Shown piece by piece: positions 4,288-4,578 of a stretch of 18,664 nucleotides of DNA. Each line of letters begins with the position of its first letter. Position 1 is the first letter of the stretch. The DNA is taken from assembly GCF_003334255.1 (NCBI RefSeq), contig NZ_QOWU01000073.1. The stretch is one strand, 5' to 3'. A program made the position numbers and the translations under genes. The DNA is from Escherichia coli (GTDB lineage Bacteria; Pseudomonadota; Gammaproteobacteria; Enterobacterales; Enterobacteriaceae). The notes under the pieces were generated by a model that did not search any database, was not told the DNA's origin, and saw nothing but the letters and a program-made list of their open reading frames with translations.

Positions 4288-4578
4288 CCCGACCCGGGGG
4301 GGGGGATCATCCGGCGTAAAAAACGATCGCTTTGGACACCGCGCCCCCTCTCACGCAGAGAAAAAATTCCCGTTTCAGGGCAGTTAACATGTTAACTGGC
4401 TGCCCGGGCATTTTTGCGGTTTTTATCTTTATTATTCAGTTTGTTGTGCGGAAAAAATGTTAACTGGCTTTTTCAGCAAATGTTAACCAGGCAGCAGTTA
4501 ACATTTGCGGCATGAGACGCCGGGAAAAATGGGCTGAACCATACCCGGCTGAGTGCGTTCTGGACCCGGGAGGAGGCT
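4288..4578. promoter_or_regulatory. Putative cos / terminase-recognition region between HNH and terminase small subunit
   Basis: 291-bp noncoding gap with a G10 run (4296-4305), GTTAAC-centred palindromes and repeats (4381-4508) and AT-rich tracts. Position matches where HNH-associated cos phages carry cos. Confidence 0.45.
4381..4508. repeat. GTTAAC-containing palindromes and direct repeats (candidate TerS binding sites)
   Basis: Perfect 18-bp palindrome CAGTTAACATGTTAACTG at 4381-4398. AATGTTAAC recurs at 4456-4464 and 4479-4487. 12-bp inverted arms GCAAATGTTAAC (4476-4487) and GTTAACATTTGC (4497-4508). Confidence 0.6.

Follow-up and report, generated by a model that had tools for sequence, protein, structure and literature searches.

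A GTTAAC repeat array beside the cohesive end site of BP-4795/2851/Stx-type Escherichia coli prophages is a probable small-terminase recognition signal

Results

Gene content of the packaging region

The DNA analysed here (a stretch of 18,664 nucleotides from Escherichia coli, hereafter the window) carries a gene for an HNH endonuclease followed by the genes of the small (terS) and the large (terL) terminase subunits, and the interval between the HNH gene and terS holds a set of short repeats and several further elements (Table 1). The sole sequence match of TerL in the PDB was 6z6d, which we take to be the large terminase of HK97, and the relationship is distant (E 1.1e-9, residues 84-534). 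Further downstream, an ORF of 645 aa (6864-8801) matches both phrog_617 (major head protein) and phrog_80 (head maturation protease), and the protease and the capsid protein appear to be fused in it. Late regions of BP-4795, 2851, 1717 and many Stx1a/Stx2 phages match the region with 94-99% identity, and the late-gene module was found in 1283 of the 5426 complete E. coli genomes, frequently with multiple copies per genome. In the annotation of the related phage record MT225100 (L001 185-793) the small terminase starts at a CTG located 45 nt upstream of the GTG/ATG used here; a Shine-Dalgarno sequence speaks for the GTG/ATG start, as does the ATG at the homologous position of the class 2 prophages described below.

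Table 1. Positions of the genes and sequence elements of the packaging region in the window, and of corresponding loci in relatives
Feature	Position	Strand	Evidence or remark
HNH endonuclease, gp74-like accessory of cos cleavage	3922-4287	+	phrog_589, E 1.6e-44
G10 run then ATCA	4296-4305		about 44 nt upstream of top-strand nick
Nick site (cosN equivalent), GGACACCGCGCCCCCT/CTCACGCAGAG (slash, nick)	4334-4360	+	Lys8385Vzw record ends and PhageTerm
10-nt 3' cohesive end	4340-4349		from Lys8385Vzw
A-tract, AAAAAATT	4361-4368	+	directly after nick site, +12 to +19
P1, two inverted overlapping ATGTTAAC half-sites	4381-4398		+32 to +49 from nick
T-tract spacer (T5 4411-4415, T5 4420-4424, T3 4428-4430)	4410-4433	+	read from sequence
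Candidate IHF site, ATTCAGTTTGTTG	4434-4446	+	conserved spacer element
Repeat C, AAATGTTAACTG	4455-4466	+	+106 to +117 from nick
Repeats D (+) and E (-), conserved GGCAG centre	4476-4508		perfect inverted repeat
terS, small terminase, GTG start after GGAGGAGG	4579-5142	+	phrog_641, E 1.8e-68
TerS N-terminal HTH domain (residues 1-55), HTH helices (residues 19-41)	4633-4701		HTH helices
terL, large terminase, distantly HK97-like	5139-6800	+	phrog_9 and phrog_7622
Class 2 cos loci	L004 1632-1880; L221, L222, L223 about 405-650
Type B example loci	L128 8349-8700; L007 4541-4900

Nick site and adjacent elements

Phage Lys8385Vzw (MT225100) is 99.6% identical to window positions 4350-4578. According to a PhageTerm analysis it is a cos phage whose cohesive ends are 3' and whose cos sequence is CGCCCCCCCT (PMC7946995). 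Its record begins with the base at window position 4350 and its last bases are ...GGACACCGCCCCCCCT, including the cos 10-mer, the counterpart of which in the window is CGCGCCCCCT. As the ends of Lys8385Vzw thus correspond to 4349/4350 in the window, the top strand is expected to be nicked between these two positions, with the palindrome of the repeat array starting at +32, and the nick on the bottom strand would lie between 4339 and 4340. The end mapping consists of one PhageTerm analysis of one related phage, and no second record starting at this cos was found besides MT225100 in the phage collection searched. The initial annotation had suggested a cos-type packaging module from the HNH endonuclease located upstream, which agrees with the order HNH-cos-terS-terL and with the cos ends of Lys8385Vzw, and it had tied the function of the repeats to genome ends located nearby; the mapped ends of this relative are indeed only 32 bp upstream of the palindrome.

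Across all the lineages compared, including the satellites and the type B relatives treated below, identity at the nick site is 94-100%. One base of the cohesive end (CGC[G/C/T/A]CCCCCT) differs between otherwise near-identical phages, and in mixed packaging this variable base would lead to cohesive ends that do not match.

The A-tract after the nick site is kept in type A and largely in type B, where some sequences read AAAATTTT or AAAATATC. In HK97, TerS requires an A-tract at +24 to +29 of cos (PMC11331095), and the A-tract of the window may be analogous to it. On the other side of the nick, the G-run is kept in the window, class 2, type B and the satellites (in satellite L003 at about 8966-8973), and the next 28 nt diverge (42-89% identity). 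HK97 (L225, about 474-486) also has a G-run with ATCA, 42 nt before its right end, so that 7-10 G followed by ATCA or similar at 42-44 nt upstream of the nick are found even with an otherwise unrelated cos and TerS. The length of the homopolymer varies from 7 to 10 among close relatives (window, L004, L221, L223 and Lys8385Vzw). The G-run may be a candidate element for termination, for nicking or for positioning of TerL, HNH or another nuclease; no mention of it was found in the HK97 papers searched.

The T-tracts between P1 and repeat C recur in other lineages despite sequence divergence, making this spacer a candidate for bendable DNA. The element following them, ATTCA[G/T]NNNGTTG, is kept in five diverged lineages with 76-92% identity, compared to 48-68% in the surrounding spacer. 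Its form in the window has one mismatch to the IHF consensus WATCARNNNNTTR, which is not significant alone, and since the exact consensus has no match anywhere in the window, the case for IHF is one of conservation. The element also resembles the H' core of lambda attP (TATCAATTTGTTG).

The repeat array

P1 is a perfect 18-bp palindrome (CAGTTAACATGTTAACTG) and the sole perfect palindrome with arms of at least 7 in the 18.6-kb window, and a palindrome with arms of at least 9 arises in only 58 of 1000 shuffles. Further copies of AATGTTAAC(T/C) are located at 4456-4465 (+), 4479-4488 (+) and 4496-4505 (-). The 8-mer ATGTTAAC has five matches, all of them within 4383-4504 and none elsewhere in the window, compared to an expected count of 0.28 for the whole window, and at least five matches were reached in 0 of 200 dinucleotide shuffles. 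Repeats D and E together make a perfect 12-nt inverted repeat, GCAAATGTTAAC-N9-GTTAACATTTGC. The array spans from +32 to +157 relative to the nick, with the D/E pair at +129 to +157, and the site-to-site spacings of 8, 68, 23 and 15 bp follow no simple helical register. The initial annotation had described a perfect 18-bp palindrome upstream of the small terminase gene, three more copies of the core in both orientations and AT-rich tracts between them, the last seen here as the T-rich tracts at 4410-4433, and its coordinates for the repeats and for the flanking genes proved accurate.

The repeats are also conserved in place and in sequence. The offset of P1 from the nick site is identical in type A, type B and the satellites, and its identity is 88-94% within a class versus 55-61% between the two classes of repeats. 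Repeat C is 91-100% identical within a class and reads AAATGTTTATAC in class 2, and D, E and their centre are 83-100% identical within a class. Right after 4506 identity drops to 23-34%, whether the window is compared to the satellite or to class 2.

Cos copies in satellites

When E. coli genomes were searched with blastn for distant matches, copies were found of window positions 4333-4506 only, and these overlie no annotated gene. In L003 (NZ_CP195401) the copy is at the end of an island of about 9 kb next to clpS (L003 1-9200) that encodes an integrase, an AlpA-like regulator, an Icd-like protein, a primase-helicase and a ClpP-protease/capsid fusion, and has no TerS, TerL or HNH. This island is a PICI-like satellite. 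Further loci with an island of this type are L020, L021 and L068, and the satellite-type cos is present in about 50-62 of the 5426 complete E. coli genomes.

The cos of L003 has a nick site with 35 of 35 positions identical, and the G-run and all five GTTAAC sites are in register; the spacers have diverged, and similarity does not extend beyond the last repeat (after 4506 the identity is 34%). Between the window and the satellite the repeats are 91% and the spacers 65% identical (Fisher p 7e-4). BLAST detected no similarity between the capsid-protease fusion of the satellite and the fusion protein of the window, and thus the satellite is tied to this helper by the shared cos only.

Fold of the small terminase

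TerS matches the Pfam family Terminase_2 (PF03592) over residues 2-57 (E 2.1e-8). The AlphaFold model, built from 33 relatives, has a pLDDT of 92-96 in the N-terminal domain (residues 1-50) and predicts four helices there (residues 4-14, 19-25, 33-41 and 44-55). In Foldseek comparisons this domain matched the DNA-binding domain of SF6 G1P in 4zc3 and 2cmp with TM 0.81-0.84 (4zc3: TM 0.84, rmsd 1.6 A, 30% identity), and with an N-terminal domain of the SF6-type fold, a predicted sequence-reading HTH domain is encoded beside the repeats. BLASTP detected no similarity between TerS and gp1 of HK97, and an HK97 gp1-type small terminase was therefore rejected in favour of a Terminase_2/SF6-like one.

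A second class of repeats and its small terminase

Each of the five sites is ATGTTTA(TA)C in L004, L221, L222 and L223, with the nick site 94-100% identical. In these lineages, named class 2, the palindrome is (G/A)(T/C)TATAAACATGTTTATA, followed by AAATGTTTATAC, AAAATGTTTAC and GTAAACATTT. The L004 type is present with at least 98.6% identity in nine complete E. coli genomes, its own included, and the other three are more diverged members that match at 86-88%. When the core of the class 2 palindrome (16 nt) was searched in IMG/VR, 91 stretches contained it, and as the nick site was nearby in none of the loci returned, these were regarded as chance matches.

Among the class 2 members the sites are 94-98% and the spacers 59-72% identical (Fisher p 5e-5 to 6e-7), and within classes overall the corresponding values are 91-98% and 59-72% (Fisher p 7e-4 to 6e-7). 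Between the classes, in contrast, the sites are the least conserved part (55-83%). The window and L004 have 119 of 121 residues of HNH and 343 of 355 N-terminal residues of TerL identical. Their DNA identity, 96-100% before P1, drops to 40-64% exactly there, is lower through the N-terminal domain and linker of TerS and is at least 90% again after 4902. As HNH is almost identical despite the changed repeats, it is not the reader of them.

The TerS changes fixed between the classes include K19R, A25E, A30E, T32S and V35C, all in or between the two HTH helices. Class-fixed changes occupy 5 of 17 positions at residues 19-35 versus 2 of 131 in the other ordered parts (Fisher p 2e-4), a covariation with n=1 at the class level, since the two classes represent essentially one evolutionary switch. 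Class 1 thus has ATGTTAAC with a TerS reading ...AGYSAKTARVKG, and class 2 has ATGTTTA(TA)C with a TerS reading ...AGYSEKSARCKG. Phages lambda and 21 likewise have a common nick site, with cosB and the recognition region of TerS exchanged as one cassette (PMC4669245). Class 2 is a candidate for a packaging specificity incompatible with that of class 1.

Type B relatives with a single site at the terS start

Scans of IMG/VR and of GTDB genomes with the nick-site sequence revealed a further group, type B, in Erwinia, Pantoea, Buttiauxella and many viral contigs, in which terS starts 39 nt after the nick. The pattern scan of GTDB gave four matches, three of them type B (Erwinia, Pantoea and Buttiauxella), and no new type A lineages. 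Type B has one GTAAACATGTTAAC site at the offset of P1, where ATG TTA ACA are the first three codons of terS. In 36 of 37 unique sequences a second site, GT[T/A]AAC, is located 217-220 bp further on inside terS, in the part encoding the hypervariable TerS linker, where it is read as Val-Asn and uses only the codons GTT or GTA and AAC. The recognition region EKSARSKG co-occurs with both GTAAAC and GTTAAC second sites, and so the correlation between recognition region and motif is not clean in type B. In the first codons Leu2 is always TTA and Thr3 is ACA in 27 of 30 sequences (2 of 30 being mis-registered), a pattern that is suggestive but confounded by the constraints of translation start.

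In the satellite, repeat D and the centre read ATGTTAACAGGGCAG, which is also the sequence of codons 1-5 (MLTGQ) in some type B terS genes; the window reads ATGTTAACCAGGCAG there. It is therefore probable that the array grew by duplications of the terS 5' end, and since repeat D looks like a relic of a terS start, the repeats owe some of their similarity to common descent.

Discussion

The GTTAAC repeats are non-random, lie beside a mapped cos end, are constrained in sequence, move together with the nick site and covary with the HTH region of TerS. Judging from these comparisons of sequence, it is quite likely that the segment 4296-4506 is the cos of a BP-4795/2851/Stx-type lambdoid prophage of E. 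coli and that the repeats in it form a cosB-like array which is recognized by TerS and sets the packaging specificity. Three observations argue for TerS as the reader. Satellites without a terminase keep the nick site and the five repeats, the five repeats and the HTH of TerS change together between the classes while HNH and TerL remain 97-98% identical, and conservation within a class is far higher in the repeats than in the spacers. The initial annotation had seen in the repeats the expected architecture of small-terminase recognition sites and had called for a comparison with related phages; that comparison, with repeats kept in the satellites and changed in concert in class 2, supports its reading through the satellites, the covariation and the conservation within classes.

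In the proposed mechanism, terminase would cut at GGACACCGCGCCCCCT/CTCACG and leave a 3' overhang of 10 nt (4340-4349), as in the near-identical phage, with the GTTAAC repeats on the side that would be packaged first. The HTH domains of a TerS oligomer may bind the ATGTTAAC half-sites, that is, the inverted pair of P1, the single site C and the inverted pair D/E. The T-tract and the IHF-like element could bend the DNA between P1 and C so that one TerS ring would hold the sites, and this complex would anchor TerL, aided by HNH, over the nick site located about 30-40 bp to the left. Packaging would then run rightwards into terS and terL. In the sister lineage the same role would be played by the ATGTTTA(TA)C sites paired with a TerS of a different recognition region.

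The repeats could alternatively be non-functional fossils of duplications of the terS 5' end, with the true site of TerS elsewhere, for example at the A-tract as in HK97. Such an origin would fit the type B genes, where ATGTTAAC is the terS start codon followed by Leu-Thr, and the satellite, where D and the centre match terS codons 1-5 of type B, and the conserved A-tract at +12 to +19 is reminiscent of HK97, in which TerS binds at +15 to +29 beside an A-tract. However, fossils should decay like the spacers, whereas within a class the repeats are 91-98% and the spacers 59-72% identical; the repeats are retained in satellites that have no terS, all five sites have changed in concert with the HTH of TerS, and this TerS is unrelated to that of HK97, which together make fossils a very improbable explanation.

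Palindromic and inverted sites are also typical of dimeric regulators, and the repeats themselves make a weak promoter-like match on the minus strand, so they might be operators for another protein (a nucleoid protein or a phage or satellite regulator) that controls the late genes or the accessibility of cos and leaves TerS without a part. We regard this as very improbable, since only the 5' part of terS changes along with the repeats in the mosaic block, flanked by nearly unchanged HNH and TerL, and the site of a host factor need not switch in concert between sister phages of one host; moreover, the motif is absent elsewhere in the 18.6 kb, and the satellites keep the repeats only within the cos segment at the island end. 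An effect at the level of RNA, with the inverted repeats as hairpins in the late transcript that tune terS translation or transcript stability, seems the least probable of all, and extremely so. D and E can form a 12-bp stem, P1 is self-complementary and the class 2 changes preserve the complementarity, but in folding, the stability of 4350-4578 does not exceed that of shuffles (z -0.96), the shared change in repeat C and in the two halves of P1 required no pairing partner, and the array persists in satellites that lack a downstream terS. A scan of 4100-4800 against Rfam gave no match at E up to 1, and the promoter/terminator scan found no terminator-like site in 4288-4578.

With recognition by TerS as the preferred explanation, the closest parallel is cosB of lambda. 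The cosB of lambda (R3-I1-R2-R1) has a length of 120 bp (PMC4669245). Both systems place short sites (here predicted TerS sites) of either orientation between the nick and the start of terS, within about 160 bp, and a bendable or IHF-type element, in our case a candidate, lies between the first site and the rest as the IHF site I1 does between R3 and R2. As in lambda, 21 and N15, the nick site is common to the classes, and the array and the recognition region of TerS change together. Simple and complex forms exist as well. The simple cosB of N15 has one R site and an inverted copy about 200 bp away in the TerS gene, and lambda and Monarch have the complex form (PMC4669245); the simple form corresponds to type B, with its second copy about 200 bp away in terS, and the complex one to the window. 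In contrast to the winged HTH of gpNu1, TerS here has a Terminase_2/SF6-type HTH, and the 10-nt 3' overhangs and the HNH partner differ from the 5' cohesive ends of lambda, which have 12 bases (PMC7672466). A palindromic GTTAAC core with an 18-bp palindrome as the first site is a further difference. As the TerS family and the end chemistry differ, the array would work like lambda cosB without being a member of its family.

The relationship to HK97 is of another kind. The gene order of HNH (gp74), cos, terS (gp1) and terL (gp2), the 10-nt 3' overhang, a distantly related TerL, the G-run with ATCA about 42-44 nt before the nick and the A-tract inside the left end are all alike in the two. However, the TerS proteins are unrelated in sequence, and that of HK97 is without a defined HTH domain. 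It uses one 15-bp site at +15 to +29, with the DNA passing through the central tunnel (PMC11331095), unlike the five-site array over +32 to +157 here. Thus, the locus is an HK97-type HNH cos module by its gene order, ends and TerL, and not by its TerS or mode of recognition, and since TerS is of the SF6/Terminase_2 type, the nearest working model is lambda cosB and not the single site of HK97. With G1P of SF6 and SPP1 the TerS studied here has the N-terminal DNA-binding fold in common. At pacL and pacR of SPP1, several sites are recognized by an oligomeric ring whose HTH domains face outwards. The difference is that these phages use headful (pac) packaging without defined ends, as opposed to the precise cohesive ends of the phage related to the window.

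Satellites with the cos of their helper are already known. SaPIbov5, with phi12 and phiSLT as helpers, and EcCICFT073, with lambda and phi80, are reported as islands with an integrase, a replicon and a capsid-protein homologue that have a helper-type cos and no terminase (PMC5052747, PMC6092414), and the L003 island fits the same pattern. EcCICFT073 redirects TerS with a protein of its own (PMC6739421) and has a different cosB (PMC6092414). In contrast, islands of the L003 type keep the repeat array of the helper unchanged.

A broader evolutionary reading is put forward tentatively, as nearly as plausible as its opposite. It holds that the HK97-type (HNH, 3'-overhang) cos phages of enterobacteria may have independently evolved a lambda-like specificity system read by an SF6-type HTH TerS. 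The ancestral single site would have covered the terS start (ATG TTA AC), and duplications affecting the 5' end of terS would have turned it into an array of five sites plus a bend element. No fewer than two incompatible classes (TTAAC and TTTAC) would have resulted, with satellites copying the class 1 array so as to become packaged. If this is true, binding of TerS to its own ribosome site and start codon in the compact relatives could couple packaging to terS expression.

In the literature searched no description of these repeats was found, the 10-nt cos of Lys8385Vzw being the only element reported, and papers retrieved with the cos 10-mer and with the repeat strings were all unrelated. It seems that the array is a known kind of signal that was previously undescribed for this very common phage group. 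Which DNA can be moved between strains by these phages, and by satellites with a copy of the signal, depends on this packaging signal, and the module occurs in many Shiga-toxin phages. The open debate on DNA reading by small terminases could also draw on this system as natural material. It has a well-folded SF6-type HTH, a multi-site array beside a precise nick site and both simple and complex versions of the array, and between its two natural classes five residues and one to four bases per site are different. The logic of lambda cosB would recur here with unrelated proteins, and the locus may be of moderate value as a model for the specificity of small terminases and for satellite piracy.
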